Of a stretch of 63,627 nt of DNA, positions 10,771 to 63,627 are shown in pieces; position 1 is the stretch's first letter, and every line of letters starts with the position of its first letter. Source of the stretch: a virus (taxonomy: Duplodnaviria > Caudoviricetes); the IMG/VR virus record IMGVR_UViG_3300021341_000078, positions 1 to 63,627 of that record, one strand, 5' to 3'. The notes under the pieces are model-generated. The model was given only the letters and a program-made list of their open reading frames with translations, had not been told where the DNA came from and did no database searches. The translations under genes were made by a program, and so were the position numbers.

Positions 10771-10909
10771 CTGTATAAAGATTTGTCTTAATTATAAAAA
10801 GAATAAACTGAGAATTTTTTCTCATAGCACTTTCTGAGAAAGCACGTCTAGTAGCATCATAAATATTCGCACCGCAATAATTAGTTTTGAGAACCAATTC
10901 ATGTGTAGA

Positions 10910-11326
10910 TTATGATAAACACTTTTGTTTGAACAGCTTTTTTATTTTAGTAGGGAACTTATACCAGTACCACCAACCTCACAACGTAACACCTAGCCGC
11001 ATCGCATAAGCTTTTACCTTGTTTGTTCAGGAAGCTATCAGAGCCTCTCTGAATATCAGATTACTCATAGGAAGTCACAGATCCCTATAGTCTGTGAACA
11101 TCCAATCATGTAAACAAGCAGCGTTGATTGTGCGTGGCTCTACTCTCTGTATGAACATTCCGAACACCATAGGAACAGAACCTCAGTCGAACTCGTATCA
11201 CTCTGGCACTTCTACGCGCTCACCTTTCATGCTATCAGAAAGATACCAGATCAGAGGCTTGGTAGTAACTCGCTTGTTCTTCTTAGGAAGAGGAGTGATA
11301 GAGGTATAAGAAGTAAATTTTGACAT
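10910..11326 (-). CDS. DUF1353-family protein; recoded
   Basis: VPEGYEFDGGSVP...AACLHDWMF with two TGA at Gly positions. Confidence 0.8.
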
Positions 11327-15060: not shown

Positions 15061-16479
15061 CTACAATACTTTGTAGATAAGAACTCTCAGTTGATCTGTT
15101 GTTGAACTTGTTACTTGGATAGTATTCACACCATTTCTCACCACATCAGTTATAACCTCTGCTCCTGTAGCAACATCTACTACATTCACAATTACATCTA
15201 GTGTGTTAAGGTTGTGTGTGATAGTTTGAGCGACTGAAGCTGTAGGTGTCCAAGTCTCAGCATACCCATATCCAGCAAGCAAGTTATCAATACTTACTTT
15301 TCTGTTTGCTGTTGCAGAAGCATCGTATACAGCAACGAAGTCGTTAGTACCATCTAGTGTCGTTTCTGCTGTCAGTTCATCGATGTTAAGCGTCAATGTA
15401 ACTGTGTCAGTAGCAGCTACAGCAGTAGTAATACCTTCACCACCTGTTACTGTAAGTGTGTCTCCTAGAGTGATAGTCTCAGTACCTGTATCACCTGCAA
15501 GTGTGAACGTACCAGCAGACCATTGTGGAGCAGTTGCACCAGCATTAACTGTTAGCACTTGTCCAGCTGTACCTATAGCAAGTGTCTGCATATCTGTTCC
15601 GTCTGAGTATACAATATCTCAAGCGTTCAGGGCACCTGAATCCCAATCTATTGTAAACGTATCTCCAGCCAAAGTAACAGTTAGAAGGTCACCACCATTT
15701 ATAGTAAGAGTCTCTCCGTCTAGAATACTTCCTGTGCCTGTGTTACCAGCAGTATTTATAGAAAAAGAAGAGTTGTAAAGAGCATCTGGGTTTACTTTTC
15801 TGATAGCTCCAGCAGAAGCGTCATAGAAAGGGATGAAGTCGTTTGTTCCATCAACAGTTAGCTCGCTTGTAAGGCTATTGATGTCTAGAGTTACAGTAAC
15901 CGTATCAGTTGCGCCTGCTGCTGTTGTGATACCAACACCACCAGCAACAGTAAGTGTATCACCGCTGGTGATCGTCTCAGAACCTGTATCTCCAGCGAAG
16001 TTATAAGTAGCTAGTCCTGCTTGGCTAAACTGTGTAAACGTCAATGCTGTAGTTCCTACAGTGATAGTTCCTGAAGTAGTCAATACAAAACCACCTCCAC
16101 CGTTTGTTGTACCTTCCTCTACGAATGTGAACAATCCAGATGTTACATCTGCATCTACATCCGCGTCGATAGCTCTTGTAGGAGCACCTGTAGCGTTTAC
16201 GGTATAGATACCATTCTCACTTCCTGTTGCTTGATCCTTAATCAAGATTCTATCACCTGTAGCAAGCGTTACGCCGTCTACTGTGTCTCCGTTCTCGAAG
16301 TCAGAAGCTAGTGTTCCTGCTGCTGTCGTAGTAACTCTTACTGAATCCTTAATGTCTAAAGCTTGCTTTACCGCGTCTACATAAGCTTTTGTAGCTGCGT
16401 CTTGTGCGTTAACTGGATCTAACAAGTTAATTATCTTGTTAGAGTTCATGTCCAATTCTTGTAATACTGGTCTTGCCAT
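15061..16479 (-). CDS. Tail fibre/virion structural protein (two track ORFs joined); recoded
   Basis: Fragments in the same frame; TGA at 15619-15621 gives A-G-DIVYSDGT...LAIGTAGQVL; DAATKAYVD and GDRILIKDQ...ENGIY motifs; internal AGDTG-ETIT repeats. Confidence 0.85.
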
Positions 16480-27396: not shown

Positions 27397-28275
27397 TTAT
27401 TGTTGCCAAGTTTTCTTCCAAACGATGTATAGACCTCCATCCCTGCAAGTGAACTCAGCTGGACTACCAGCGAAATCAGTTCTACTTCTGTTGACGTAAG
27501 TTCTAGCAAGTTCTCCTGTCAATGCTGCTTTTGAGAAATAAGCGATAGTCTGAGAATAGTTTGTCAGACCGTTACTTGAATCTACACTACCAGCCTGAGC
27601 ACAAGAAACAAACTTGTACAACCCCAAAGGAATACTTTGTTTTTCTACTCTATATCCTGTTAGTTGCTTGTCTCTAGGTGTGTAATCGTAAACGATAACT
27701 AGATCCTGAGCGATGGTAGTAACACTACCTGCAATAGCTGGAACAGTAACTACTGTTCTACCTAGTGCGTCTTGTGTTACTGTGTAATCAGCAGGAGCTA
27801 TAACACCATCCACAGAACCTGTTACAGAAGTAACAGTGATAGCAGAACCGTCTCCGTTTTGGTTACATAGAGCGATAGCAGTAGCTAGTGCCCAGTTTCC
27901 AGAAGCCACAGTTTGCGGAAATCAAGGGACAGCAGCACCAGTAACGCTAACAGTGCTAGTTCCTAGCATATTTGCTAGTACGTCTAGGTTATTTACGTCT
28001 AACCAAGTGAAGCTGATAGATGGGATGATCTTTGCTGAAAGATCAATAGTACCTACATCGCAGTTATCTACGATGATCTCTTCTTCTGAATCTAGAGTGT
28101 GTCCTTCTGAGAAATCTTGGATCTGTCCTACTGTAGAGTAAGCATATGTCTCAAGATCACATCTAAGACTTTCTAGGTTCGCAGCGGTTGGTGTAGCGAA
28201 TGTTCTGCTACTATCGAAGTTTGTTGAGTAGTACAGATCACCAGCCGTAGCCAACTTATCAAGTGTAAGTGTCAT
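27397..28275 (-). CDS. Major tail tube protein; recoded
   Basis: Two track fragments joined by a single TGA at 27922; canonical position. Confidence 0.75.
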
Positions 28276-30642: not shown

Positions 30643-31821
30643 TTATGCAAGAGGACAAGCCATAGAGATAGTCTTATCTAGACCTGCTTTCTCGTTTGCG
30701 ATATCGAAACCGAAGAACATAGTAACATCCCATAGGATAGCGTCACTGTATTCGTGAGTAACGATGTTCATGCTTTTACCGAAAGCGTATTGTACAGCGT
30801 TTCTGTGCATCAAGATACCTTGGATGTTTGTTGTAGAAGTTTGTGTGAACTTACCACGTGCATCCAAAGCACCAGCAGATATTACTGTACCGTCTGCTTC
30901 ACAGAAAGCTGGCATCTCTTGTGTAGAGTATGCTTCTACTCCCTCTGGAGCTAGTACGAATCCACCTCTAGTATTAGTAGCGTTACCACCGAATACGTTT
31001 TGAGTAGAGTAGTTAGAATCGAATCTTACCTTGTTAGCAAATGTGTTTGACAACAAGAATAGAAGATCGTTAGGGTTGTTCACGTAGTTTACAACTCCAG
31101 TAAACATATCCTGTACTACACCTCTTGAGTATGCAGCAGCACCGTTAGTAACACCATTAGCGATAGCGATCTTTCTGATACCGTTGTTACCAACAGTAGA
31201 AGCGTTTTCATGGTATGTTGTAGGTACAACTTGACCAGCATAGTTGATGTTAGTAGCCGTAGCATCTGTATCACCGTTGATGATGTAGCTTTCAATTGTC
31301 TTGTTAGCAGCAGCAACAATCTTTTGCTCGATTAGAGCAAGCATGTTTGTTTCTGTTACTCTAGACAATTCTTCTACTGAGATAGCGATCTGAGTAGTGA
31401 ACTTCTTCATATTGATAAGCAACTGATCTGTTCTCACAGCGTTGTTGTTGCTGATATCGATGAAGTTCTGCACACCTGTTCTCTCGTATCCAGAATCGAA
31501 GTAATCTGCTTCACCAAGAACGTTAACTCTTGCAGAATCAGCAGTATCGATCTGACCGTGATTACCTCTCAATTTAGAAAGAAGCTCAGACTGTCTGCTG
31601 ATCATAGAGTATAGTTCACTCTTGTATTCAACAGGAACTCTGATCTCAGCACCGAAGTCAGTATTAACTCAAGACATGATTTCGTTTTGTGCTTTCTGTC
31701 TAAGGTTTTTCTCCTCAGTGAAAGACTTCTCAGCAGCTTCTAGAACCTTTCCAGCGTCTTTTCCTGCTACTTTTGCAGCCTTTGTTAGGGCTGTCTTAAA
31801 ACTTTGATCTACTAGTGACAT
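30643..31821 (-). CDS. Major capsid protein (HK97 fold); recoded
   Basis: Track fragments joined by one TGA at 31669; IAISVEEL, YIINGD; position after protease. Confidence 0.85.
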
Positions 31822-31846
31822 TTGTAGTAAATAAATAGATATAAAA

Positions 31847-33094
31847 CTATTCAGCAGCGTGTGCTGTTCTTTTGAGCGCATCACCTACTCTGTAGCCTGT
31901 AGATTCCTCTTCAACGTACAGCATACCAATCTCTTTGTAGTTGTTTACAGCCTCAGCTACTACTTCTTTGAGTTCAGCGTTTTCAGCGTCCTTCTTTTCG
32001 TTAGCTTCGACTAGTTGATTGATAGTGTCCGTAGCTTTCTGAGTCACCTCTTCTAGAGTTTCCTCTAGCTTAGCTACTTTAGAAGATAGCTCTTTGTAGT
32101 TAATCCCTTCCTCTACTGATTTTTCCTCTTCAACAGTTTCCTCTACTTCTTCAGTAGGTTCTTCTGTTTCAGATTCCTCTCAGTCTCCAGCGTCTCAGCT
32201 TTCTTGTGAGTCTTGAGAAACTTCTTCAGCTTCTTCTGGTGTGCTTTTCTCTTGTTCGTCATCAGCTTCAGCAACAATGTCTTCTTCTACATCGTCTGGC
32301 GCTACTTCTTCAGTAACCTCTTCAGATGTTTCTTCTTCTTCTTCTTCTTCTTCTTCTTCTTCTTCTTCTGTTTCCTCAACTGTTTCTTCTACGGCTACTT
32401 CTGCTGGGTCTTCTCCAGCGTCTTTCTCTTCTACTAGTTCTGGCATTTCCTTAGCTACCTCTTCAGCTACTTTCTCCAGCTCTTCAGCTTCTAGGGTGTT
32501 TACGTCAACTCATTTCTCTTTCATGTACTCCATTAGTTTCTTAACCTGCATGGTATTAGTGTGTAATTGTAAAAGGTTGTCTATAGATTTACGAACCGTG
32601 AATGGGTTGTTCGGTATATCTACCATCGATATCTCGTGAAGCTCTACAGACGTGATATGTACTCAGTCTTCTCTCTCTTCTATCCCACCTTGCTTAGGGA
32701 CGAATCCGATAGAGAATCCTACAATGAGTCCGTGTCTAAGACCGTGTATTGTTTTCTTGTGGTCTTCGATCTCTGGGTTTAGGATAACTTTAGAATGGAT
32801 ATACAGCCCTTCTCATTCTTTGACCTCTATTCTCTCAGTACGTCAGATGTTGTTCTCTTCACCTCTCTTGTGTCCTAGCTTGATTACAGGGTTCTCCATA
32901 TATCTTCTTAGGTCTACTCACTCTGGGTGTATGATATCACCGTCGAAATCTTTATCGACAGTGCTAGCAAAACCTTCAATACTGAACTCTATACTCCCAT
33001 CCTCTAGAACCTTTTCAGGTAGCTTAGAAGGGATTCTTTTAGAGTGGATAATCAAAGGGCATAACTCTTTTCTTCTGCGTTGCTTTCTGTTCAT
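31847..33094 (-). CDS. HK97-type prohead protease with acidic scaffold-like C-terminus; recoded
   Basis: IEGFASTVDKDFDGDII...NPVIKLGH...GFSIGF...LHEISMVDIPNNP; poly-Glu from GAA repeat at ~32331-32368. Confidence 0.88.
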
Positions 33095-33173: not shown

Positions 33174-34499
33174 CTATGATTCAGGCTGTGGCTGTTGTGG
33201 TAATCTGTTAGGTATGTACTGATCTAGTATTTCATCGTTTACCTCTTCTAGTTCAAACTCTGTTCTATACTCGTTTCTGTTCTTGATGCCTCTGTCTACC
33301 TCCTGCATAGCGATCTCTCTTTCCTTAATCACGTCTCTAAACTCTGCGTTCTTACACTTGAACTCTCAATCGAACTTAGGGTCAAAGTATTTCTTGTATG
33401 CTATGGTCATAGTGTCGCTTAGTAGTTTACCGTATGTGTCGATAGTGCTGTTACCTTGTCTCACAGTCATGCTTTCGATTTCAGAAAAAGCTCCAGTTTC
33501 TTTCTGGAGTCCTACGAGTCTGGTGTCTAGCATGAATATCACCGCAAAGTCTTTGTCGTTTTCTTTTCTGATGTTGATGTAGTCCATATCTATGTTAGAT
33601 AGGTCTAGCGTTGTCACGTTCTGTACTATGTCAGAGATAAGCGGCTTGTATGAGTTGCTAGAACCACCAAACTTGTTGTTCCACATCTCAGCAAAAGCTT
33701 TTACATCCTCTGGGTTCTGGATCTTCTCTTGGTCTAGTGCTACCATAACATTAGGTACAGCGTTGTTCTTGAAGAAGTATAGCTGTCTCTTGTTCGCTTC
33801 TTGGTTAGTTAGTGCCTCGATTACTATTCTCTGTAGCTTAGAGTAACCGTACATAGGACGGAAAGGGTCTCTAAGCATAACCATGTTTACAAACTGTTTA
33901 GGCAAGAACTTCTCTATCTCGTTTTTGATAACGTAGTGATAGTGTTTGATCTCTCCGAACTTGTCGAAAAACTTCTTAACACCTCTAGTATCAAGAACCT
34001 TTACGTACCCATCTTTAGGGGCTTTGTTTAGTAGGTTAATCTGGTTAGGTATAAGACTAATCTCACCGCTACAGAAGTACTGCACAAAGAAGTCTCTAAT
34101 GAAATTATCGAAAGAAAGGTTGTCTGTCACTCATGTGCGAAAAAACAAGCTAGCTTGTTGCATAGCTGAGTTTGCTCCACTATCCTCTCTTACCTCTTTG
34201 GTCTCTGGATCTATAACACAGAACCCATCACGACCGACCATGTCTGTTATTTTATCTATGTACGCACCAGCCATCTTGTTAGTCTTGGCTATTCTGTACA
34301 TAGTGTTGCTGTCTATAGCCACCTTTCAGCAACCTTCTAGGTTAGATACTTCACGTCGTCAAAACTGCGATAGCCCAGAAACAAACTTCTCTTTTGTTGT
34401 CCTCTGTGGTACTACCTTGGGTGTTATTTCTTGAGAGATTTGACTTACAAGGGCGTCAATATTCTGCTCGTTGAAGTTTTGTATGAACTGGTTCGACAT
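33174..34499 (-). CDS. Portal protein (HK97-like); recoded
   Basis: YGYSKL, FFKNNAVP, KNRNEYR; two track fragments in one frame. Confidence 0.88.
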
Positions 34500-34556
34500 G
34501 AAGGAGGCATGTACTAAATATCTAGCGTGGGATATTTAGTAGTTTATCATAATGCT

Positions 34557-34585
34557 TATAGTCTAGGCTCGTGAAAAATCAAGAG
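34557..34585 (-). promoter_or_regulatory. Late sigma70-type promoter TTGATT-N16-TATAAG; related copy at 21820-21848
   Basis: 24/29 nt identity between the two copies; upstream of portal and baseplate genes. Confidence 0.6.
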
Positions 34586-34673
34586 TAAAATATCAAGAAG
34601 ATAAGGTGTCAAAACTTTTGTACTCAAATTAACACAGCATAATGAGATTATGAAGGCAGTCCTTTTTTATTCG

Positions 34674-34681
34674 TAAATTTG
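34674..34681 (+). promoter_or_regulatory. Bacteroidota -7 promoter element TAAATTTG
   Basis: Matches TAnnTTTG upstream of standard-code moron 34748. Confidence 0.6.
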
Positions 34682-34747
34682 TAATGCTATTTCTCGCCAG
34701 ATTATATGATATCAAAAATTAACGAACCTATCTGTATATAAATAGAT

Positions 34748-35515
34748 ATGAATAAATTTAAGTTTTTTGTTGTAGTCTCGATTTTACTTATTGGTGTTTT
34801 ATATTATAGAATGTCTTTAGGTTCTTCTTATGCATATGAAGAGGAAACTGTGTTTACTGACTTAGAAGAAGCCTCTGAACCAGAAATAAAGTTTGACCCT
34901 CCCCAAATTTTTGCTGAACCTTATGATAAGAAAGATAACTTGAAGGATAAATTACTTAAAAAATGCAATATTTCTAGCCTAAAGAAAAAACTGCGAAAAT
35001 CCTGTGATTATAACGAAACTAGAAACCTTGCTGCAATAATTGCTTCCAAGTCTGAAGGAGAATTCAACATTGGTCAGGTATGTGATATTTGGGATTATTG
35101 TAAAGAGAAATGGGCGTATGTAGATGATCCTGCTACCTCTTTCATTTCCTCCGCATCCAATACAATCAGAATAGGGTTTAAAGGAGATTGTGATGATTTT
35201 GCGGTTGTAAATTCAGCTTTAATACTAGGTATTGGGGGAAGAGTACGGATTAATGTGGCTTATAATGATGATGGAGGTCATGCTTTTACTGAAGTAAATG
35301 TTGGGGATAGTAACATTGATGCCATACAGGCTTACATAAACTATCGATATAAAAAAAGATTAAAACAAAAAGTGAAAATTAACTACAGAGTTTCGTCCGA
35401 TGGAAACAAATGGTTGAATCTTGATTGGTTCTCTGAATATCCTGGTGGAAAGTATTTTAATTTTAATCATGGAACTTCTTATTATATATTGCAAGATTTC
35501 TGTGAAAGTTTTTAA
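34748..35515 (+). CDS. Membrane-anchored transglutaminase-like cysteine protein (standard-code moron)
   Basis: GDCDDFA...GHAFTEV...LDW triad; N-terminal TM. Confidence 0.8.
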   Translation: MNKFKFFVVVSILLIGVLYYRMSLGSSYAYEEETVFTDLEEASEPEIKFDPPQIFAEPYDKKDNLKDKLLKKCNISSLKKKLRKSCDYNETRNLAAIIASKSEGEFNIGQVCDIWDYCKEKWAYVDDPATSFISSASNTIRIGFKGDCDDFAVVNSALILGIGGRVRINVAYNDDGGHAFTEVNVGDSNIDAIQAYINYRYKKRLKQKVKINYRVSSDGNKWLNLDWFSEYPGGKYFNFNHGTSYYILQDFCESF

Positions 35516-35534
35516 CTTTGAGAAAATTGAAGTT

Positions 35535-36209
35535 ATGGTATTCTACACTAGTGATGGAAAAGAAACATTTGGACCATTTTCTTTAGAAGAGTTAAAAGAA
35601 CAAGAACTTGTTAGTACTTCTCTGGTTTATAGTGAAGGAACGCAGTGGGTGAAAGCAATAGACTTACCTGAACTAGCAGATTTCTTTAAGGCCAAGGTCC
35701 CACCACCACCTCACATTCCACCTCCGCCACCTGTTCACCTAGTCAATCAAAATGTTTACCAAAGTAAGATATCTAACGATAAGCCTTTCTCTTTTGATTT
35801 TTCACAAGTGAAGGATAAGGCCTGGATAGTCGCTCTTGTAGTGTTTTTGATAATTGGCGGATTTGGGGTAAACTATTATCAAAATGTCAAAGAGACTGCA
35901 CGTTTAGAGGCGGAGGAAGTAGCAAGTAAAGAATTAAAGAAACAAGAAGAGGCAGCTAAAGCTGAAGAACAACGTATTAAGGAAGTCGAAGGAAAAATCG
36001 CAGAATCTAAGGAAAGGCTTGCGACACTTCAAGGTGATCTAGCCTATGCGCGCCGCAATCAAAGAGAGGTTGAAGAATTCGATATAACCAGAACGCCAAA
36101 GCAAGGTAGGGAGCAGAAGGCCGAAGCGAGAAGGGAAGTTAATAGAATTCAAAAACAGATCGACCAGGAGAAAAAAAGAATAGAAGATCTTGAGGCAATG
36201 CTATACTAA
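35535..36209 (+). CDS. GYF_2/DUF4339-domain membrane protein with coiled coil (standard-code moron)
   Basis: GPFSLEELK...LVYSEG..WVKA...PEL, poly-Pro linker, TM helix. Confidence 0.8.
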   Translation: MVFYTSDGKETFGPFSLEELKEQELVSTSLVYSEGTQWVKAIDLPELADFFKAKVPPPPHIPPPPPVHLVNQNVYQSKISNDKPFSFDFSQVKDKAWIVALVVFLIIGGFGVNYYQNVKETARLEAEEVASKELKKQEEAAKAEEQRIKEVEGKIAESKERLATLQGDLAYARRNQREVEEFDITRTPKQGREQKAEARREVNRIQKQIDQEKKRIEDLEAMLY

Positions 36210-36293
36210 TTGGTCTATTACCGATTGACAGAGATTTGTACGGCCAGATTGACCGAAACAACTATCTTCAAATTTCAGTAAAATTAAATTGAG

Positions 36294-36324
36294 TAGAGCG
36301 TATCTAGAGTTTAGATACGCTCTA
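36294..36324. terminator. Perfect 13-bp hairpin
   Basis: TAGAGCGTATCTA-GAGTT-TAGATACGCTCTA. Confidence 0.55.
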
Positions 36325-36356
36325 TTTAAATAGAGTACGTTCCGTCAGATACTATC

Positions 36357-37610
36357 ATGGGAATAAAGTCATTGATTTACCTTGTAACCGCTCTAGTAAT
36401 TAGTGTCGTAATCTTAGACATTAAAAGCGATATACACAAAAAAAGAACATATGATGAAGACTACAGTAAAGTCCTAAACATCAAGTATGGACTATTAAGC
36501 TTAGATGAGTGGAAAGACAAGGCTTATATCGTACTAAGACAAAACATTAATGAATTCAACTTCAATAATTCAGACAAGCAGACACTAAAGAGCCAGATTG
36601 AAGAACTACTATATACTCTTTTAGATGAAGTTAAGGAGGTAGTTGAGGAAAGTAGTACTTTGAATGGTGCGATTCCTAGCGAGGTGGCGAATTTTCTACG
36701 ATCGTTGGTGATCGATTTTGGAGTCATTGAGAATAATATACCTGATTTTGCCGATTCCATAATGGCAGAACTCAATGATCCTCGTAATCAAAATCAGGTA
36801 AAGAGCATAATCAATACCAAGTTGAGATCTATTCTGGAACTTGATGTGCCAAGGACTGACTTAGAGTTTAGATCATTCTATTTTGAGTTATATAACTGCA
36901 CAAGTTACTTGGAGTGTGGTGAAGAAATCAAAAACAAGTTAAAGCCTATAGAGGAAAGCATTGAATGTAAGAAGAAAATTCTATATGGATGCGCGGCTTT
37001 ATTGATTTTTATTGCCTTGTTCCCACAGAGAAAAGTAGATTTAGGAGATATTGTTCCTTTAACAATGGCAAGTATAGGTCTACTGTATGCAGGGATATAT
37101 TATCCAATGATTTCTGTTGATGCCAGGGTTAGTGAATTTGACTTTAAGTTGCTAGGAATGAATGTAGAATTTGGAGAACAAGTTATATTCTATCAATCGA
37201 AGAGTATTCTTGAAGTCGTAGGTTTGCTAATAAGTGAATCCAATATAGATAGTGTGTTTGTCGGGTTTTTAATCTTATTTTTTAGTGTCCTATTTCCGAT
37301 ATCCAAAATGTTGCTTTCCCTTGTATTTTACTTTAACCGTAAGAGCAGAGTTATATTCTATATAGTTACTAAGCTTAGTAAATGGTCTATGGCTGATGTA
37401 TTTGTGGTTGCCATCTTTATGTCGTTTATAGGCTTACGTAGTTTAGTGAAAAGCCAGGTTCTGAGTATTGAGAGCGGAAACCCATTCATTGACATTGTAG
37501 CAACCGACAACACCTCTTTAGAAATAGGTTTTGTCTGCTTCACCTTCTATTGTTTAATCAGTATTTTGATGTCTGCGAAAATTGGGAAATTACCAAAACA
37601 CTTCAGTTAG
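36357..37610 (+). CDS. Paraquat-inducible protein A (PqiA)-domain membrane protein (standard-code moron)
   Basis: LFFSVLFPISK and KWSMADVFVVAI motifs. Confidence 0.85.
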   Translation: MGIKSLIYLVTALVISVVILDIKSDIHKKRTYDEDYSKVLNIKYGLLSLDEWKDKAYIVLRQNINEFNFNNSDKQTLKSQIEELLYTLLDEVKEVVEESSTLNGAIPSEVANFLRSLVIDFGVIENNIPDFADSIMAELNDPRNQNQVKSIINTKLRSILELDVPRTDLEFRSFYFELYNCTSYLECGEEIKNKLKPIEESIECKKKILYGCAALLIFIALFPQRKVDLGDIVPLTMASIGLLYAGIYYPMISVDARVSEFDFKLLGMNVEFGEQVIFYQSKSILEVVGLLISESNIDSVFVGFLILFFSVLFPISKMLLSLVFYFNRKSRVIFYIVTKLSKWSMADVFVVAIFMSFIGLRSLVKSQVLSIESGNPFIDIVATDNTSLEIGFVCFTFYCLISILMSAKIGKLPKHFS

Positions 37611-37632
37611 ACTAGAAGGTTATCTGCATTAC

Positions 37633-38970
37633 TTAGTTTAATATAATTCATCCAAAGGAGTATACTTTAGGAGTCAACTTCCAGTAGCAACGGAACATAA
37701 TACAATCTGCAAAGTCTGGAGACCTACCGATCTTTTCTATGATGTCTTCCTTCTTTATCATTCTGATCTTAGTGTCCTTATCCATGTCTATCTGACACAT
37801 AACATCTAGCTCTTCTATTATTTCTTCTTTGAATCTGTCGTCGTTTATTCTGATGCTTCTTATGTGATCTCTAAGCTCGAAGTAACACTGTGTTTTTAGG
37901 TTCTGGTAGCTAGGCTTGAACTTGTCTATTTTCTCTTCTCTTGACTGTACTGGGGTAGAGTTGTTCTGGAATCATTTACATCTTAGGTTGTCCCTAACTC
38001 CTGCTCAGATACCGTCTGCATCTACAATTATATTCTTACGGTTCACTTTATGCTTCTGTGAGAACTGTACAATCTTATCCTGTAGCACATCTAGTGTGCA
38101 TGTATCATAAACAACCATATCGATCACTTCTCGTCAGTCTCGCACCATTATCACGGCTCTATCTCTACCCATTCTAGCAACGTCTGCTGTTATATATTTC
38201 TCTCAGTTATTCTTTGGGTTTGTGAACATATCACACAGGTCATCATAGTCGTACAACTTTCAAGGCGTGTCATCGTAATCAAAGTTACCATAGAGCAGTC
38301 TTTGCTTCTGCACCTCTGGTAGCTCCTTTAGGTTCTCTATGTAGTGTTCTGAGATGTATTTATTGTCTGTAGCTAGTGAGGTGACAAACTTTGTATTATC
38401 CGCTTGTTTCTTGTCTCTAAATGGCTTGTAGAACTTTTGGTATACCCGACCCTTGTCTGGGTTAAATGTAGCCAGCACTTTACCTATTATGTCATACTGA
38501 TCTAGTTTGTACCTGCATCTAGAGAGTAAAATATTGAACGCTAGCTCTTTGATCTCGTTACCCTCGTCTACGAATCATCAACACACCTCTATGGATCAGA
38601 ATCTAGAGTACATTGGGTCTGAGGGCATCCAACTAGCGTCTAGCAAGAATATCATAGAACCATTTCGATAGTGTATCTGTGAGTCTTGTTGTTTGTATGT
38701 TACATGTTCTTTGGTAAGACCTGATTTAGGTATTACGTCACCCATAAGTGTCATTAGTGTAGATTGTTTTAGTCTCTTGAGTTCGTTACGTGCGATGAAC
38801 CGTCTGGATCAGGGCTTAGCGATGCACATAGTGTTTATCCATGTACATCATAGGTAGGACTTACCTCATCACGCTGCACCTCAATATCAAATAGAAGTAG
38901 TAACCATGTCGGTTAGATACTCCCAACAGTCTCCCTGCTTCTTAGTTAGTGATATCTCTAGCGTGCTCAT
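37633..38970 (-). CDS. terL: Terminase large subunit; recoded
   Basis: IGYGGAAGGGKS (TGA at four of those Gly), SRW(CGG)FIAR, GFVDEG, ATFNP, ADVARMGRD, GRSPDFAD. Confidence 0.93.
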
Positions 38971-38975
38971 ACTTG

Positions 38976-39003
38976 GTTATAGTCGTGATCTTGTCTTTGT
39001 CAA
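38976..39003 (-). promoter_or_regulatory. sigma70-type promoter TTGACA-N16-TATAAC, 5 nt before the terL ATG
   Basis: Direct motif match; implies a leaderless transcript. Confidence 0.65.
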
Positions 39004-39101
39004 ACAAAAACTTTGTCTTGTTTTCGTCCAGATTAATAGAGTTGATTTGCTTTTAAGGTTATAATTTGGCACACTCAACGTACCAACACAAACCAAAAAC
39101 T

Positions 39102-40136
39102 ATGTTCGTACTAAATCTATTGGCTGGTATCACAGCCGTTTTGGGTGGCTACTACAGGTTTTTGAAGTTCTCTCGAATAAATGATGAGGTTGAAGAATAC
39201 AAGAAAAAGAACGGTAGAATATGGGAAAAAATAGATAACTCGAAATTCAGAGAACTACCAGCCATTGTTATTAGGTGGTATCTACGACTAAGTACGCCTT
39301 TCAAGAATATTTACGCGGAGCTTGAAAAAAGAGGCGTAAGTGGGAAAGTTCCTAAGTTCTTTTACTATGGCTTTATGATAATAGGCACAGCGTGTTTTAG
39401 TCTTTCCTTATTCGCTTTTCAAAACCACCTACTTTACTTTGTTTTCTTGCTTTTGTTCTTGGGTATCCCTGTAGTTTTTCAAAATGATCAGACCTTTAAT
39501 TTATCTGAAGGTCAGGGAATTTACGCTTTTGGTAAGTACATGACTATACTTTTCCTTAGCCTTTTGATAACATCTTCTTCGCTCATCCTTGGGGATGAAG
39601 TAACTTGGAATGATTTTAGTATTGTATCAGACTTAGAAGTAAGGACACTAGTTTTTTCGATACTTTTTAGCAATGTAATATTTGATCTTCTGACCGTATT
39701 CATAACGTACTTCATTCTTAAGAGAGCACTAAACAACCGACGATTCCTTTTCCTCTTTATATCCCTTGACATCATAATGTCAGCGTGTTTCTCTATTTAC
39801 TCCATCTATTTTGGCTTGCTAGGCACAGAGCAGAGTATAGACCTTCTGGAAGCAACACGTATGCTTATAGGTCTTTCTCCAGATGGTAGTATGTGGCAGT
39901 TTGGGTCTTACTTTTGGGCGATGCACACTACCTTCATACCGACACTAATATACTTGAGTGTGTTAATCCTGATGATTATAGCAAAGTACATAACGATACC
40001 TGTAGCTAATTTTTTCTACAGAGCAAGTGTTACTGAAGACCCATACATGATGTACGCCTTTTTCTACGTTACATTGTCTGGTATCTTCCTTTTGATAAGT
40101 TTTGTAATGGGATATTACTTAAAAAGCCCCTCGTAA
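39102..40136 (+). CDS. Multi-TM membrane protein (standard-code moron)
   Basis: Many hydrophobic helices, no TGA, opposite strand to late genes; hairpin 40121-40146 follows. Confidence 0.75.
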   Translation: MFVLNLLAGITAVLGGYYRFLKFSRINDEVEEYKKKNGRIWEKIDNSKFRELPAIVIRWYLRLSTPFKNIYAELEKRGVSGKVPKFFYYGFMIIGTACFSLSLFAFQNHLLYFVFLLLFLGIPVVFQNDQTFNLSEGQGIYAFGKYMTILFLSLLITSSSLILGDEVTWNDFSIVSDLEVRTLVFSILFSNVIFDLLTVFITYFILKRALNNRRFLFLFISLDIIMSACFSIYSIYFGLLGTEQSIDLLEATRMLIGLSPDGSMWQFGSYFWAMHTTFIPTLIYLSVLILMIIAKYITIPVANFFYRASVTEDPYMMYAFFYVTLSGIFLLISFVMGYYLKSPS

Positions 40137-41781
40137 GAAGGGCTTGTATATTCTTAGACTACTTAGCTTTTAGTACTTCAAGTATCTGTATATAGCTACT
40201 AATATTCAAACGACTAAACCATACGGTCACATTGCTACTACAAGCAGATTAAACAGCTTTTGTCATATCGTTTCACTCTCGGTTCAGTATGATGGATCGT
40301 ATTCTGACATCTGAATTATCAGAAATCAGAGAAACCCTATAGCTATCCACATAGTTACTGCCACAAACAGTGGAACTTCTTCTGTTCAACTAGCAGAGAC
40401 ATTAGAAGAATTTGCTGCATTAGTAGCTGCGATAGCAGCGAACATCGATGCTGTTGTTGCACTCATTTGTAATTATTTAGGGTATAAAACTAACTATTAT
40501 TAAGAAGGAGTATTAAGAGTAAGGAAACCACAACAAGCCAACTCATTGCCCCCATCTCGTCGTTAAGTATGAATCATATAATGAAACAGACAATAATATT
40601 TACCAACATCAAAAACATGAGTAAAATATAAAACTACTTAGCACCAGTCTTTGGTAACACCTTTGTCTTGAACTGTTTTACTAGGTGTGCTTCTGTGTAT
40701 TCTGCTCAGTCCTTAGTGTGTGTTGTTATCCCAAAGTTTTTACACACGTCTATGATGTCTTCTTTGCGTAATATATCGGCGCAAACCCTAGGTGGCATCG
40801 TTAGCAAAACGTCTTTGGTGCGTATGTAGCTATCCAGAGCGTCTATATTTATCTTGTTGATGTGTACTGCTCCTAGAGCCATTATGTGTAACTCTTCTAT
40901 TTGTTCTTGTTGCTTGCTTATAATATTACCTTGTGCGTTTTGTGTGATAGCAAGAACTATACAGGCTATAGATAATAGGACTACTGCGATTTGCATGGGA
41001 TATCTTTATGAAGTAAAGTGAAGTTCAATAACTCGCGGTATCAGCTCTCTTCAACCTTAAATGTTATCTCTTTATCTCTACAAAACACTTCCATTTCATG
41101 ACGCCTAAATAGAGAGTGATGCTTATTCAATCTCTCCTCGTCAGAGTACTTTCAAGAAAGATTTATCGATATATACAGATTCTCATAAAGAGGTATAACT
41201 ACATAATCCTTTCCAGAGAGGTTACACAAGTCTATCATAGGCATTAGATAAATTGCGTCGTTGTGCTTCTTTTGTACGTCATCACAACAGTCTTTTCTTT
41301 TTCAAAACATTATAGTATTGCGTATAGAAAGGTAAAAAACATTCATAGAACTAGTATTAGAAGTCCTACGTAGATCGGTGTGTTGCTAGGTGTGGTACGT
41401 AAGAAGTACTTTATCATCTCTGTAGATGGTGGCTTGGCTTTTGGGTCAGGATTGTGCTTAATTGGTGGCACTGGTAGCCTTCGCTTCTGGGACATGTGTG
41501 TGTTACTTGTAAAACTAGTCCTCTATCTTCTCTAAAATACTTGCGTGTATTAGGCGGTGTCACAATGGACCATCTGCTACATCACGTAGAGATACGGTAA
41601 ACACTCATTCTAGTCTAGTAGCGCTATAATCATCAAAGGTAGATGCTTCGTACGCAACATTAGACAGATACTCTTCAAGAGAGATCCTGATTACTGTTCA
41701 TACTATTCACTCATAAAAACCTTCTGTTACTCTCACTTTGTCTCAGTACTTAAACATCTTGCGTAGGGTTACTTGTAAAAA

Positions 41782-42177
41782 CTATCTCTCTATCTTTATG
41801 TTGATGCTGTCAAAAAGTGGGCTTTCATCTTTCCCTGTTATCTCTTGGTGTTGTTTATTCTTCCACGTGTCTTTGTAGTTGTTGCACAAGTTGAAGATTA
41901 CTCCTGCAACATTTTTTCATTGGAAGAGCTGTCATTCCGCATAAGCTTGGCAAATAAAGTCTATCTTTTTTAATGTGTCCGAAAACTTTTCTGGGAGGTC
42001 GTAGAAATATCAGTGACCTAGTAGCATTTCAGCTAAAAAGCCTCTTTTGTAGATAGGTAATCAATTCTCAGATTGCTTCACACAATAAGCAATAAACTTA
42101 TCCCAAAGCTCTTTAGGATTCTTAATCTTGCGTGGTCTTCAGCCTTTGTTCTTCTTAGCTGGTGCTTTCTTTGGCAT
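41782..42177 (-). CDS. Terminase small subunit; recoded
   Basis: NKGGRPRKIKNPKELWDKF...AGVIFNL...EITGKD. Confidence 0.75.
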
Positions 42178-47902: not shown

Positions 47903-48259
47903 ATGTCAGTGAAAAAAGTACTTAAGAGAAAAGTAGGAAGCGTGAACGTTTACGAACTCACAGAAAAAGAACTAATAAGCCTAGAAAAGGGCTTGCCAAA
48001 GATTCTCACGATTCTGAGTCCAGTCCTTGGGTGCTTCGCCCTTGCTACCTCCTTCATACGAGATATTCTCAACAATAAACTCTCCCAACAAGATTTTATC
48101 TTATTACTTGTTACGTCTAGTTTCTTTATTGCCCTTGGGTTCTTTGTCCTGTTTTATAATCTAGTTATAAAGAGAGAAAAGCAGACATTATTATCCCAAA
48201 TACGCAAGAAAAGATCCAGATCTAACAATTCAATTGCATCTCAGAAAAGACCTAAATAA
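47903..48259 (+). CDS. Two-TM membrane protein, paralog A (standard-code moron)
   Basis: SVNVYELTEKELISLEKG...SPVLGC...TSFIRD. Confidence 0.75.
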   Translation: MSVKKVLKRKVGSVNVYELTEKELISLEKGLPKILTILSPVLGCFALATSFIRDILNNKLSQQDFILLLVTSSFFIALGFFVLFYNLVIKREKQTLLSQIRKKRSRSNNSIASQKRPK

Positions 48260-50847: not shown

Positions 50848-51891
50848 ATGTATACTTATAAGTTTAGAATCTACCCCAATAAAGAACAGCAAGCATTACT
50901 TGCAAATAGCTTCTGATGTTGTAGGTTTGTTTACAATAAGTGAATAGCGACTCGGCAAGAGATGTACAAAAAGTGAGAAAAGGCAAACTACTATACGCTT
51001 GCGTGACTACTAAAAGAACGGAAGCAAGAGCTGCCACGATTAAAAGTCGCATACTCGCAGTCATTGCAACAGTCCTTAAAGAATCTTGACCGTGCTTACA
51101 AAAACTTTTTTGCTAAGCGTAGCAAGTATCCACGCTTCAAGAAGAAGTTTGCAAAACAATCTTGTCACTTCCCACAACACACAAGCATAGAGGGGATGAA
51201 AATCAAGTTCCCTAAACTATGACTTGTGAGGTGTAAGCTCCATAGGAGTGTAGAGGGATGTATCAAGAATATGACTATCACACGTAATCCATCTTGAAAG
51301 TACTACGTCAGTATTTGCACTGACCATGCTCCACAAAAACCACGTGGCACTGGTAGTGTGGGCATTGATGTTGGTATTAAAGAACTTGGCTACTGTAGTG
51401 ATGGTTATGTGATAAAGAATCCAAAGTTTCTCAAGAAAGCTATGAAAAGACTAAAGAAACAGCAGAGATTCATGAGTAGAAAAAAGAAGGGAAGCAGAAA
51501 CAGGAATAAACAAAGAGTAAGAGTAGCAAGACTTTATGAGAAAGTAACCAGCCAGCGTAGGGATTACCTACACAAAGTGTCTACTAGACTACAGAAGAAC
51601 TATGAGACAGTAGTAGTTGAGGATCTAAATATCAATAATATGGTAAAGAACCATTGCCTTGCACAAGCCATTATAGATGTAAGTCGATGAATGTTCTTCA
51701 CTATGCTAGACTACAAAACGAATTTAATCAAGGTAAAGCCACACAACACATCCAAGACCTGTAGTAGGTGTGGTCATGTAAAAGAAAAGCTAAGTCTTGA
51801 AGTGAGAGCGTACACTTGCGGTGCGTGCTGACTGATAATCGATAGAGACTACAATGCTAGTCTCAACATATTAGCAAGGGCTACTACTTAG
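50848..51891 (+). CDS. tnpB: IS200/IS605-family TnpB RNA-guided nuclease; recoded
   Basis: YKFRIYP...FG(TGA)CCRFVYN, PW(CGA)LK, GIDVG, VVEDL, DVSW(CGA)G(TGA)MF, TSKTCSRCG...C..CG...DRDYNA. Confidence 0.93.
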
Positions 51892-52026
51892 ATTTTAGAA
51901 CTACTCGGTAGTAACTGGTAGCGTAGGTACTACGCGAACCGAGCTTAAGCTCAACGCCTGTGGAGAGTGTAGGTTACGAACTCTATGAAGCAGGAAGCCG
52001 TCGGACTTTAGTCCTTGGTAGTTCAC
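51892..52026 (+). ncRNA. Putative TnpB omega/reRNA scaffold and IS right end
   Basis: ACGCCTGTGGAGAG...ACTCTATGAAGCAGGAAGCC, hairpin GGACTTTAGTCC, terminal GTTCAC. Confidence 0.65.
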
Positions 52027-57620: not shown

Positions 57621-58397
57621 ATGAGAAAGTATACACCGCATATAATTACAGTACTAATACTAGTACTTATCGTATGAACAATACTGAATCGACCAACACA
57701 AGAAAATAAATCACAGCTAGAGAAGCTAGTAGAAGAAAGAGCTATCCTAACAGAACAAATACAACAGATAGAAGCAACAGAACAAGAGATACAGAAAGCT
57801 ATTGAACAGGAGTGTAAGAAGATGGATATAGAATGTGCAGTAGATAGCATACCAGAGAAAGTAGAGCAAGTTGTTGAAGCTAACGGAAAGGTAGAGGTAG
57901 AGGAGCAAGAACAGTCACCCACCAAGGAAGAGAAAGAGCTGATGGAGCAGATATGCAAACTAGGAACAAAGAATGGTAAAACAACTATCCTATGTGATAA
58001 CTGGGAGCTGTACTACCAACTAACTGAAATAAGTGCCAACAAGTGAGTTCCATTCAAACTTATGTTAGGTATTACTATGGCAGAAAGCCACATAGGTACA
58101 AACCGAGCACCAAAAGAAGAGTGCTCAAAGTCTAAGAACTGGGCATGACTAAAAGGAGCAAAGAAAGACGATGGATCTGTTATATGGTATACAGTAGCAG
58201 GCAAAGGTATAGAGGGGTGTTACTTGTTTAAGTTCGACTTAGTTACAGACTTCCGAAGCCATTTTGCAAACACACTACTAACCTATCAGAACGCTTGTTG
58301 ACGAGATCCAGCATGTATCTCGGTAAGATATGTGGGAGGACAAGGAACAAAGAAGAGATGGGTACAAGCAGTTAATTTATTCTATACTAATGAGTAA
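57621..58397 (+). CDS. Membrane-anchored coiled-coil protein with lysozyme/glucosaminidase-like domain; recoded
   Basis: N-terminal TM; GVPFKLMLGITMAESHIG...NWAGLK. Confidence 0.55.
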
Positions 58398-61214: not shown

Positions 61215-61748
61215 CTACTGATCACCGAGATTCAAAATAGGTCTCGCTAGCTTGTAACGTATAAGCTCACCTTGTGGTTTGTCTGGACGAGAGAGGTTTT
61301 CTTCACTGAGTGGATACTTGCCTATCTCAATGACCTCTAACTCCTTGGCTTTCTGTACTGTCCCTTTGTAGATAGTAACATACTCAAGGTTCATCCTTTT
61401 TAGATACTTAGGCTTGTATCTCTTGGATTCCCCTTGGATTGTAATACCGATTTTCGCTGTTTCACCTTTGTAGAGGTAGAATGTGCCGTTTGGACAATGT
61501 AAACACTGATAGTAACCGTTTCGTCTAGCAACTAAGCGGTATGTCTCAGCGCTTTCTCTCATCCTTCTCACCTTGTCGTTGAGTTGGGCTTTTCTCTTCT
61601 CCTTTAGTTCGTACGTTCCGTCTGGATTGCGTTTTACGTAGTCATCAAATGACTCGTAAGCGAAGTAAAGTAATGCGAATAGCAGGAATAAGATTGGTAG
61701 GGTTCTACTCTTGCCTACTGGTGTAGGGCTTTCTGTTTTCTTAACCAT
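61215..61748 (-). CDS. Membrane-anchored protein with GIY-YIG-like motif (standard code)
   Basis: TM, then YRL...CxxC...KIGIT...RY...E. Confidence 0.55.
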   Translation of the reverse strand: MVKKTESPTPVGKSRTLPILFLLFALLYFAYESFDDYVKRNPDGTYELKEKRKAQLNDKVRRMRESAETYRLVARRNGYYQCLHCPNGTFYLYKGETAKIGITIQGESKRYKPKYLKRMNLEYVTIYKGTVQKAKELEVIEIGKYPLSEENLSRPDKPQGELIRYKLARPILNLGDQ

Positions 61749-61873
61749 ACTGCCTTGAATTTTGGCGGTTTACGAATATGATTTATTCGTAAGTACTGCC
61801 CTCAAGGTAGTGCGTGACTATTGGAGAGGGGCGTTTCTGCTCCTCTCTTTCACAATAAACATATAACAAAAAA

Positions 61874-62335
61874 ATGGAAAAGAAAAGAGTACCTAAACGT
61901 GTTGCAGAAATCCAAGTAACCTACTCAGCTAAAATTAAAAAAGAAGAACGGCATCAAGTCAAATGTAGCCTAGACATCTACCAGATAGTCATGTCTGAGA
62001 TCTATGGTGATGATATTGAGTACGTAGAGACGTTCTACGTTATAATGCTTAATAGATCTAGTGAGATATTGGGTTATAAACAAGTTAGTAAAGGAGGATC
62101 ATCGGGCACGGTTGTCGATGCAAAGGTGGTATTCGCGCCAGCGTTAAAGTGTCACGCGAGTAGTATACTCTTAGTACACAATCACCCTTCATCTAGCCTA
62201 TACCCTTCACAACCTGACAAGAACCTAACAAAGAAACTAGTAGACGCTGGGAAGCTACTTGACGTACTTGTCTTAGACCATTTGATCGTAACTATGGAAG
62301 GCTATTACTCCTTCGCAGATGAGGGTCTTATTTAG
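61874..62335 (+). CDS. radC: RadC-like JAB-domain protein (standard code)
   Basis: E..Y...LNR, HNHPS...PS..D, VLDHLI, YYSFADEG. Confidence 0.92.
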   Translation: MEKKRVPKRVAEIQVTYSAKIKKEERHQVKCSLDIYQIVMSEIYGDDIEYVETFYVIMLNRSSEILGYKQVSKGGSSGTVVDAKVVFAPALKCHASSILLVHNHPSSSLYPSQPDKNLTKKLVDAGKLLDVLVLDHLIVTMEGYYSFADEGLI

Positions 62336-62344
62336 CAATTATCT

Positions 62345-62370
62345 ACTGACGGACTACCGTCAGTTTTTTA
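62345..62370 (+). terminator. Intrinsic terminator between radC and integrase
   Basis: ACTGACGG-ACTA-CCGTCAGT followed by T-run. Confidence 0.7.
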
Positions 62371-63627
62371 TTATAGCATATCTATCGCGTTCTGTAGTTT
62401 CTCTCTATCTCTCACTATACCCAAATACTTATTGGTAGTCTTTATTGAAGCATGATCCATAAGAGTTTTAACCGTCATTATGTCTACACCTTTTGATAGC
62501 GCTAGGGTAGGGGCTGTGTAACGTCCACTGTAGAAGCTAAAGTATCTACCATCGCTGAAACCTATCTTTTTGGAGACCCTCTTATAGCACTTATAGGAAT
62601 TGTCTCTCTCTCTTTTTGCCCTTCTCTCTGTCTCTACTGGATCTTTATCGAAACCATTTAGTATAGGTAGTATGTACTTACCTTTTGAGTCTATCTTTTT
62701 CAGTATCTCTAGTGCAGCCTCCTTCACAGGTTTCCCCAGCTTGTTCTCGAACCCAGTCTTTGATCTACTATACTTCCAAATGTCGTTTGTGATATCATCC
62801 CAACGCAACCGAGCTAGGTCTATAAGGTTCACCCCAAAAAAGAAATATGAGAGAACCCAGTAGGACATGTACTTCCATTCAGTGTCTGAGAAGGTGTTGT
62901 TGTAGTAATAGAAAACAACGCTTTCTTTTTCTTCCTCAGTCAGATCTCTAATTCTTTTCTTATTGGTTTTTTTCTTCCCTTTTCTTTTGCGCTCGTTTAT
63001 ATCATACCCGTTAGGGTTGTAGACTGTCTTAAAAGGGTTGTGCTTGGCTTCTATTATTCCCTCCTTGAGTGAGAAGGATATCAGTGTTTTTGTCCACTTT
63101 AGATAGTTGAAGCCGTTCATATCTCTCTCGTCGAAAGACTTTGTAAGTTTATTTATAGAGGACAGATTGAAGTCGCGTATTCGTTTATTGTCCAAGTCTG
63201 CTTTCTCAAATACAGGTATGAGTGCTAGATAGTTTTTTGCAGAAGATACATCACCAGACTCCACCTTGCGGTTGTATATGTCCATAGCAAACTCTCCTAA
63301 GCGCTTATCTTCTACCTGCTCAGTAGATCTATGCTTAGCTAACAGGCTAGAGAACTCTTTATAATCAAAGCTATCTATGAAATTATTCTGGTAGACGTGG
63401 TAGCAATCATCAAGGTACTGTCTGATATAACCATTCTTTTTCTGTCGACCTCTTTCGTGTACATTATAGCATCTTCTTTCAGAGTCCCAATTCTCTTTTA
63501 AGCAGGAATAGCCCTTGATCCTTTTCTTAGTGTTGTTACCTCCATACCTGATCTGTATGCAGACAGGGTGTGCACCATTTCTTAAAGTAACATGTTTGTC
63601 AAGGTAAGTGACAAAAGTAACCTTCAT
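62371..63627 (-). CDS. Tyrosine integrase, Bacteroidota type (standard code)
   Basis: N-terminal arm-binding-like HPVCIQIRY; GVNLIDL, RSKTG, FYSGRYT, MDHASIKTTNKYL. Confidence 0.92.
   Translation of the reverse strand: MKVTFVTYLDKHVTLRNGAHPVCIQIRYGGNNTKKRIKGYSCLKENWDSERRCYNVHERGRQKKNGYIRQYLDDCYHVYQNNFIDSFDYKEFSSLLAKHRSTEQVEDKRLGEFAMDIYNRKVESGDVSSAKNYLALIPVFEKADLDNKRIRDFNLSSINKLTKSFDERDMNGFNYLKWTKTLISFSLKEGIIEAKHNPFKTVYNPNGYDINERKRKGKKKTNKKRIRDLTEEEKESVVFYYYNNTFSDTEWKYMSYWVLSYFFFGVNLIDLARLRWDDITNDIWKYSRSKTGFENKLGKPVKEAALEILKKIDSKGKYILPILNGFDKDPVETERRAKRERDNSYKCYKRVSKKIGFSDGRYFSFYSGRYTAPTLALSKGVDIMTVKTLMDHASIKTTNKYLGIVRDREKLQNAIDML

Follow-up and report, generated by a model that had tools for sequence, protein, structure and literature searches.

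Standard-code genes for predicted membrane proteins flank the terminase gene of a recoded siphovirus prophage

The 63,627-bp stretch of DNA analysed here (the window) is the entire single-contig virus record IMGVR_UViG_3300021341_000078 and is a temperate siphovirus prophage, in which four plus-strand genes for predicted membrane proteins lie antisense to the minus-strand late genes and flank the terminase large-subunit gene, terL, on both sides. To one side are the genes for a 255-residue transglutaminase-like protein with a cysteine-protease fold (34748-35515, plus strand; Pfam Transglut_core, PF01841, E 1.2e-6, 29.2 bits against a cut-off of 23), a 225-residue GYF_2 protein (35532-36209, plus strand; PF14237, E 1.2e-7, 31.9 bits against a cut-off of 25.8) and a 417-residue PqiA-like integral membrane protein (36357-37610, plus strand; PF04403, E 1.6e-11). 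The minus-strand terL gene itself (37633-38970; Terminase_3, phrog_2) separates these from a fourth gene, which encodes a protein of no recognized family with approximately seven hydrophobic segments (the multi-transmembrane protein; 39066-40136, plus strand, with a likelier start at 39102). The block is bordered on the left by the portal gene (33174-34499, minus strand; Phage_portal, E 5.7e-20), with a divergent intergenic region of 248 bp (34500-34747) between portal and transglutaminase-like genes, and on the right by a small membrane protein gene (40170-40466, minus strand). In-frame TGA codons number four in portal, 15 in terL and six in the small membrane protein gene, and none is present in any of the four plus-strand genes.

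The lack of TGA in these four genes is specific to the reading frame. None of their 62 glycine codons is TGA, compared with 342 of 924 (37%) in 51 recoded genes of the prophage (P 3.6e-13), and TGA is undepleted off frame, at 35 per 1000. Three of the genes end in TAA and one in TAG, and their GC content is 0.361 as against 0.402 for the recoded genes. The GYF_2 gene contains no CGA or CGG codon either; an alternative start at ATG 35400 would add one TGA to it, and the GYF_2 domain begins at residue 5 counted from the 35532 start. In the transglutaminase-like gene, CGG167 (window position 35246, within the peptide GGRVR) stands opposite arginine in 135 of 149 homologs and CGA200 in 97 of 149, and every codon for the conserved tryptophans W122, W222 and W227 is TGG; this gene reads CGG and CGA as arginine. 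The four CGA codons of the multi-transmembrane gene face columns that are polar or basic in its three aligned relatives (alignment A3). A sequence-only reading of the window had described four membrane proteins antisense within the recoded late region, with CGG at 35246 used as arginine, and both statements are correct, the one by open reading frames (ORFs), Pfam matches and hydropathy, the other by the column of homologs.

The predicted products all appear to be associated with the membrane, with hydrophobic segments in a Kyte-Doolittle scan numbering one in the transglutaminase-like protein, one in the GYF_2 protein, five in the PqiA-like protein and seven in the multi-transmembrane protein. 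The transglutaminase-like protein retains a catalytic triad, C148, H178 and D226, that is kept in 144, 148 and 149 of 149 homologs respectively; hydropathy marks residues 1-19 as an N-terminal membrane anchor, and the domain would lie outside the cytoplasm. The GYF_2 protein has a proline-rich linker, a transmembrane segment at about residues 90-108 and a charged, glutamate- and lysine-rich C-terminal tail, which gives a match to PADLOC LmuB (E 2.6e-4) that is not credible. The best structural cluster in the Atlas has a fused GYF_2 and transglutaminase architecture and is mainly from Bacteroidota, but we keep this link between the first two genes as a lead only because none of the six Bacteroidota genomic homologs that were scanned contains GYF_2 (E 0.001). 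The PqiA and YebS family is defined by two repeats. The PqiA-like protein has a single PqiA domain, in its C-terminal half, scores 25.4 bits against a TIGR00155 cut-off of 260.35, and has no MCE/PqiB partner in the window or at any of the six annotated chromosomal loci of its relatives; it is not a canonical PqiA. The multi-transmembrane protein has no match in Pfam, PHROG, NCBIfam or PADLOC.

The divergent intergenic region contains TAAATTTG at 34674, 67 nt 5' of the transglutaminase-like ATG. The consensus for the Bacteroidota -7 promoter element is TAnnTTTG, and this motif is found upstream of seven of 67 window genes, four of those seven being TGA-free, which we take as a weak hint at most. 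It also occurs 104 nt upstream of a TGA-free ORF of 118 codons in the early region (47903-48259), the product of which has a weak match to a tandem five-transmembrane protein (E 4.9e-5); this may be a fifth standard-code membrane gene of the same kind.

The phage core, by contrast with these genes, reads TGA as glycine. The combined length of ORFs of at least 150 amino acids is 7227 amino acids in the standard code and 18535 when TGA is sense, compared with 12396 for TAG and 9558 for TAA, and ORF cover rises from 0.373 in the standard code to 0.896 with TGA as sense. Between 9.4 and 61.2 kb, 70 of the 82 core ORFs contain in-frame TGA, as do 50 of the 55 that have at least 100 codons; the five exceptions are the four membrane-protein genes and the 118-codon ORF. 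Reading TGA as glycine restores the Walker A motif of TerL (GYGGAAGGGKS) and motifs I and IV of a C5-methyltransferase (FDGISCG and GGSPCQGFSIAGQG), and the alignment columns facing the 15 TGA codons of TerL are 69% glycine when pooled over 88 standard-looking homologs. The closest relatives of TerL (P0121-P0124, 50-58% identical) are recorded in translations that render TGA as tryptophan, and they show tryptophan exactly at the columns where standard-code relatives have glycine (alignment A1). Three virion genes, one of them the capsid candidate, are nearly TGA-free (15061-16479, 27397-28275 and 30643-31881, with TGA at 1/50, 1/22 and 1/29 glycine codons); the products are probably abundant, and the codon is avoided there as if its decoding were costly.

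Two arginine codons of the standard code are also reassigned in the core. Among 83 standard-looking homologs of TerL, CGA277 is opposite tryptophan in 77, CGG57 in 42 and CGG175 in 43; the column of CGA280 is leucine or phenylalanine and that of CGA102 tyrosine or lysine, so that arginine is commonest at none of the five CGA or CGG codons, whereas it is commonest in the columns of CGT, AGA and AGG (0.75, 0.35 and 0.67, pooled). Other core genes show the same pattern: CGG285 of the methyltransferase (GNG[.]TV) is opposite a tryptophan of DNMT3B, CGG60 of a NUDIX protein is opposite a tryptophan of E. coli IDI and opposite leucine in two further Nudix proteins, and a WDGH-domain protein has CGA-CGA-D-G-H at the motif for which the family is named, which becomes W-W-D-G-H only if CGA is tryptophan. 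Tryptophan makes up 0.71% of residues in recoded genes through TGG alone and 1.23% with CGA and CGG added. A tblastn comparison of other head genes with standard-code loci, intended for codon inference, yielded just two alignments. The core (recoded genes between 9436 and 61158) thus reads CGA and CGG as tryptophan and TGA as glycine, which is the Absconditabacteria code. The assignment of UGA to glycine and of CGA and CGG to tryptophan in those bacteria is given in the portions available to us of the survey by Shulgina and Eddy (eLife 2021, PMC8629427).

The interleaving of two codes that had been proposed for this region is thus borne out by the distribution of TGA, and it is sharper than originally stated, since CGA and CGG differ as well. 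The two gene sets are mutually unreadable, because the core is truncated and mistranslated in the standard code and the transglutaminase-like protein loses a conserved arginine in the phage code.

The relatives of the inserted genes point to a cellular source. For the PqiA-like protein 495 homologs were found. Six organism names appear within the top 120, four of them Bacteroidota or Bacteroidetes and the others Chryseolinea and Balneolaceae. Matches to this protein were found in 22 of 201 sampled Bacteroidota genomes and in none of 201 genomes of the Gracilibacteria class (the class of one Gracilibacteria metagenome-assembled genome); its chromosomal neighbours are ordinary housekeeping genes at all six annotated loci, and viral contigs of IMG/VR scanned with the protein and with alignment A2 contain no relatives. 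An identical PqiA-like protein is on record from a contig of 103,730 bp, which exceeds the length of any phage of this size, and further relatives exist at 73% and 53% identity, as do relatives of the multi-transmembrane protein at 66% and 63%. The transglutaminase-like protein has matches in 10 of the 201 Bacteroidota genomes and in one of the 201 of the Gracilibacteria class, the latter a single weak match (E 1.5e-4). A scan of viral contigs with the multi-transmembrane alignment A3 gave no confirmed relative, and a metagenome scan for close relatives of the cargo genes recovered ones that are 22-46% identical among the matches listed, with window-like neighbours at none of 80 loci.

Homologs of the PqiA-like and transglutaminase-like proteins are therefore not drawn mainly from the candidate phyla radiation (CPR), and sequence comparison demonstrates a cellular, Bacteroidota-like affinity for two of the four genes. 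The proposal that the genes were captured while the prophage resided in Bacteroidota stands in part: the PqiA-like and transglutaminase-like homologs are in Bacteroidota and not in CPR bacteria, but the multi-transmembrane gene is a near-orphan and no donor is traced. Identity to the best cellular homologs reaches only about 30-50%, and the capture is therefore old or its donor unsampled. Even so, not one of the 208 glycine codons in all the TGA-free genes of the window taken together is TGA, as against 37% elsewhere; this lack of drift to TGA speaks for selection that keeps the genes legible in the standard code.

The remainder of the window has a siphovirus layout by PHROGs and Pfam. Late genes occupy the minus strand: terS (41782-42177) comes first, followed by terL, portal, prohead protease, capsid, tape measure and tail genes, and a holin-peptidase gene (9436-10500) is the last. 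Early and replication genes run on the plus strand from 43797 to about 60.9 kb. An acidic repeat in the prohead protease/scaffold gene (32135-32378) is a place where Logan assemblies break, at 32322-32378, and one low-depth contig of run X1 has a three-base insertion after 32146. The early region includes a TnpB/IS605-type gene (50848-51996; OrfB_IS605, Cas12f1-like_TNB) that is in the phage code, with eight TGA codons, and a sub-threshold RAGATH-18 match 3' of it (51957-51996, 31.3 bits, E 0.059) is possibly the end of a TnpB guide RNA.

Two further groups of genes are TGA-free. At one prophage end (61215-63627) are genes for a 177-residue protein (minus strand), RadC (plus strand) and a tyrosine integrase (minus strand), as assigned by ORFs and families; the integrase gene (62371-63627) has no TGA in 22 glycine codons, and its ATG is the final triplet of the window. 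The other is a three-gene module (4762-9455) that encodes a 674-residue protein without family (minus strand), a HerA/VirD4-like ATPase and a Replic_Relax protein (both plus strand). Beyond it, positions 1-4611 are a probable host flank with genes for a threonine-rich protein, an amine oxidase (2314-3642) and tRNA-Ala(GGC) (4537-4611, minus strand). The record has no terminal repeat; its first letters are TTA, the reverse complement of a TAA stop, and its last are CAT, the reverse complement of the integrase ATG, and the provirus was therefore cut out of its contig at gene boundaries. X1 Logan contigs span from about 4584, inside the tRNA-Ala gene, to about 63737, some 110 nt past the integrase start, and the true ends of the element may lie near these two positions.

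Relatives of the prophage were sought with a TerL-alignment scan of one genome per species, which gave 38 loci, four of them with in-frame TGA in TerL. One of the four (L002) is on a 234-kb contig of a Saprospiraceae metagenome-assembled genome (G001), and its TerL is 56% identical to that of the window with 13 TGA codons; two (L003 and L004) are on contigs binned as Gracilibacteria, and the fourth (L035) is on a 2.4-kb contig. In a quick TerL tree the window groups with the Saprospiraceae relative (98% support in the SH-like approximate likelihood-ratio test, SH-aLRT), the two Gracilibacteria-binned sequences are placed immediately outside this pair, and the sister of the entire group is a Lewinella prophage in the standard code (97%). 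CGG44 in the TerL of the Saprospiraceae relative is opposite tryptophan in 69 of 83 homologs, indicating the full three-codon code, while the two Gracilibacteria-binned relatives read TGA as glycine and CGA and CGG as arginine (arginine in 82-83 of 83 homologs at several codons). This TerL clade spans at least three coding states.

The Saprospiraceae relative is a 49.6-kb prophage (G001:C15 8052-57675, L046-L048) between exact 53-bp repeats (8052-8104 and 57623-57675), the latter copy forming the 3' end of a tRNA-Leu(CAA) gene, with the integrase adjoining. ORFs cover 45.8% of the sequence between the repeats when it is read in the standard code and 92.1% when TGA is sense, and 102 kb of host flank has 95.8% standard-code cover, with 13 of 87 long ORFs stopping at TGA. 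Release factor 2 (RF2) scores above its family cut-off in this genome and is absent from two Gracilibacteria genomes. The genome has tRNA-Arg(ACG) and tRNA-Arg(CCG); in the 30 of its 31 tRNA matches that were checked (all but C19:93786-93869), the anticodon is never UCA or UCG. These observations prove a standard-code chromosome as the home of this relative. For the window prophage such a home is probable: the flanking amine oxidase gene has no TGA, its CGA433 is opposite a conserved arginine of LSD2 (YLSGVREA), and the closest matches to it in 201 Bacteroidota genomes have identities of 60%, 56% and 54%. With up to three mismatches, the 53-bp attachment sequence of the relative was found in G001 alone among 201 genomes of its order and in none of 201 of the Gracilibacteria class, which is uninformative.

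The Saprospiraceae prophage also carries standard-code cargo beside its terminase genes; a comparison of the slots in related prophages was what the sequence-only reading had called for. Near terS and terL are genes for an M4-like peptidase, an Eco57I-like methylase, an antisense product of 342 amino acids and a type II restriction endonuclease (E 1.1e-98). In the methylase gene, and in the 342-codon antisense gene that lies between terS and terL, TGA first appears in frame two to four codons ahead of the next TAA or TAG, as if TGA were the stop codon of both. The integrase of this prophage has its sole TGA upstream of the start, and beside it (L048 11428-17742) are TGA-free Replic_Relax and HerA-like ATPase genes of families matching the pair at 6792-9455 of the window.

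Machinery for reading the core is not evident in the window. No tRNA with a UCA or UCG anticodon was found with default ARAGORN settings or among Rfam matches (E <=1), tRNA-Ala(GGC) being the only tRNA, and the window contains no release-factor or aminoacyl-tRNA synthetase gene. Candidates from relaxed, intron and mitochondrial ARAGORN settings are poor; one 65-nt 'tca' candidate (10860-10924), for example, is 29% GC and lies inside coding sequence. Nevertheless, the core ORFs are intact and are therefore read somewhere, and an Absconditabacteria-type cell is the simplest place. In the window, 42 of 56 recoded genes have a TTTA motif upstream, with a sharp positional peak at 22-19 nt from the start codon, compared with four of 14 TGA-free genes; the corresponding counts in the Saprospiraceae prophage are 30 of 46 and two of 11, and eight of 87 host genes have the motif. 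It may serve the other translation system as an initiation signal. Shine-Dalgarno sequences are nearly absent from both sets in the window (1/13 and 3/51).

The reading we favour, with a probability of about 0.62, is that of Bacteroidota-like standard-code cargo in an Absconditabacteria-code prophage resident in a standard-code bacterium. The four genes would be 'morons', accessory cargo whose ancestry is cellular and Bacteroidota-like, inserted on the opposite strand around terL, and the host would be a standard-code bacterium, most likely one of the Bacteroidota. Host ribosomes would read the standard-code set alone, that is, the integrase, RadC, the HerA/VirD4-like ATPase, Replic_Relax and the four envelope proteins, and the remaining prophage genes would be translationally silent in the lysogen. 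The lysogen would presumably produce the four proteins, and its envelope would be their site of action; the likeliest role, lysogen-expressed envelope remodelling or superinfection exclusion to the benefit of the lysogen, is one for which we see roughly even odds.

Several observations weigh against this reading. The three nearly TGA-free virion genes mean that a low TGA content alone is no proof of standard-code reading, and in the PqiA-like gene CGA115 falls where homologs vary, leaving the lack of TGA as the sole sign of its code. A Bacteroidota-like affinity is shown for two of the four genes; the multi-transmembrane protein is a near-orphan, with nine relatives among 5.8 billion proteins, none of them named, and gives no taxonomic signal, and PADLOC offers a credible defence match for none of the four. 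The host of the window is seen through about 4.5 kb of TGA-free flank plus one relative, and among 301 genomes of the order to which that relative belongs nine have a TerL match and its genome alone has a recoded TerL, so that integration in Bacteroidota rests on two cases. No RNA runs with the stretch are listed, and the tRNA and release-factor content of the window leaves translation of the core in a standard-code lysogen without explanation.

The alternatives differ in where, and whether, the two gene sets are read. The TGA-free genes resemble the backbone of an integrative and mobilizable element (integrase, RadC, VirD4/HerA-like ATPase and Replic_Relax) with cargo added, which led us to consider that the prophage is a mobile element of two codes and two hosts, with the code acting as a switch between them. 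Its standard-code genes would then serve persistence, movement and envelope change in Bacteroidota, with a restriction-modification system in the Saprospiraceae prophage; the four genes around terL would be the part serving the Bacteroidota stage, and the core would become active only on reaching an Absconditabacteria-type cell, such as a CPR episymbiont or predator of the lysogen. We offer this tentatively, as possible but unlikely. A code switch within one Bacteroidota cell, of the kind described by Borges et al., is improbable in our estimation; translation of the four genes and the integrase would come first, and the cell would afterwards be converted to the phage code. Recoded prophages with stop-free integrases are known in standard-code Prevotella and Oscillospiraceae, and a suppressor tRNA is detectable in just 35-40% of recoded phages, as reported in the part of the Borges study available to us (10.1101/2021.08.26.457843). 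However, the window has no suppressor tRNA, release factor or aminoacyl-tRNA synthetase gene, and the early plus-strand operon (43.8-60.9 kb) is itself recoded, leaving nothing that could start the switch, and we doubt the model for these reasons; tryptophan at CGA and CGG would moreover have to compete with the host tRNA-Arg, of which both the ACG and CCG species are present in the Saprospiraceae host.

Slightly less probable still is that the host is of the Absconditabacteria type and the TGA-free genes are recent, unadapted and perhaps non-functional passengers from Bacteroidota. The core code is exactly that described for Absconditabacteria in the accessible part of PMC8629427, two relatives are on Gracilibacteria-binned contigs, and a TGA-free gene ending in TAA or TAG would still be readable under code 25. 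Against this, the distance to the best cellular homologs is not that of a recent transfer, yet none of the 208 glycine codons has become TGA, and the phage code would turn the arginine conserved in 135 of 149 transglutaminase-like homologs into tryptophan. The flank of the window is in the standard code and the Saprospiraceae prophage is between attachment repeats in an RF2-bearing chromosome; the two Gracilibacteria-binned relatives, for their part, read CGA and CGG as arginine, so that the full code is not shared. Lastly, the whole arrangement could be an artefact, either an assembly chimera of Bacteroidota and CPR phage DNA or a chance absence of TGA, and in this direction point the lower GC of the four genes and the fact that the best-matching run is possibly the source of the window. 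Chance is excluded by the P value of 3.6e-13 and the undepleted off-frame TGA, however, and it would take six misjoins within 6 kb to produce as many changes of code. The stretch occurs in four seawater-metagenome runs from four studies, one of them perhaps its own source. In the other three (X2, X3 and X4) separate contigs cross the junctions with no differences, namely X2 record 6 and X4 record 23 (portal to transglutaminase-like gene), X2 record 8, X3 record 16 and X4 record 25 (PqiA-like gene to terL), X2 record 9 (terL to multi-transmembrane gene), and X2 record 9, X3 record 17 and X4 record 27 (multi-transmembrane gene to the recoded gene at 40170). There is therefore no assembly chimera, as the sequence-only reading had argued from the interleaving itself, and an artefact of either kind is scarcely credible.

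Prophage morons and lysogenic-conversion genes for membrane proteins, superinfection-exclusion proteins among them, are accessory genes that interrupt the essential genes of a phage on the opposite strand. The four genes around terL resemble these in strand, in their lower GC and in encoding envelope proteins, but are unlike known examples in being set apart by genetic code in addition to strand and composition, and no similarity to known exclusion proteins was found. The PqiA-like protein shares one PqiA domain with PqiA and YebS, and differs from them in having a single domain and no MCE/PqiB partner.

The TAG-recoded Garnet and Topaz prophages, as presented in the available part of the Borges study (10.1101/2021.08.26.457843), have genes that are fragmented in the host code, like those of the window; they too are integrated beside a tRNA gene with an integrase that lacks recoded stops, and the code is proposed to separate lysogeny from lysis, as it may in the present prophages. 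The window differs from what is described there in reading TGA as glycine rather than a stop codon as glutamine or tryptophan, in the change of two sense codons, CGA and CGG, in having recoded early genes with no suppressor tRNA or code-change gene, and in a sizeable standard-code cargo interleaved with packaging genes. Code-25 phages of Gracilibacteria and Absconditabacteria (Liu et al., mBio 2023, PMC10746230) likewise use TGA as glycine, in about 90% of genes, and need no tRNA genes, according to the sections accessible to us. The prophages in those sections sit in code-25 genomes, whereas the flank of the window is in the standard code and its relative is in an RF2-bearing Saprospiraceae genome; phages linked there to both CPR bacteria and Bacteroidetes are compatible with code 11, and the window phage is not. 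Phages with AGG as methionine that lack a matching tRNA, as the window core lacks one, are reported in the accessible part of Shulgina and Eddy (PMC8629427), where the three-reassignment code is described for cellular genomes; here it is seen in a phage core. In the main texts of the literature searched we found no phage with CGA and CGG as tryptophan, no genome mixing that code with standard-code genes and no code-25-type prophage in a standard-code host.

On current views, a recoded phage either has the same unusual code as its host or uses tRNAs of its own to bring a standard-code host over to the phage code. The present prophage has three codons reassigned in its core and a tRNA for none of them, and a standard-code home is proven for its relative and probable for itself. 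Its packaging module keeps genes that are meaningful in the code of the host alone, and these provide a natural marker of prophage genes directed at the lysogen. The arrangement raises the question of where, and by what machinery, the phage core is translated, and if a second, CPR host is involved, then Absconditabacteria-type bacteria and marine Bacteroidota would be linked through a shared virus.

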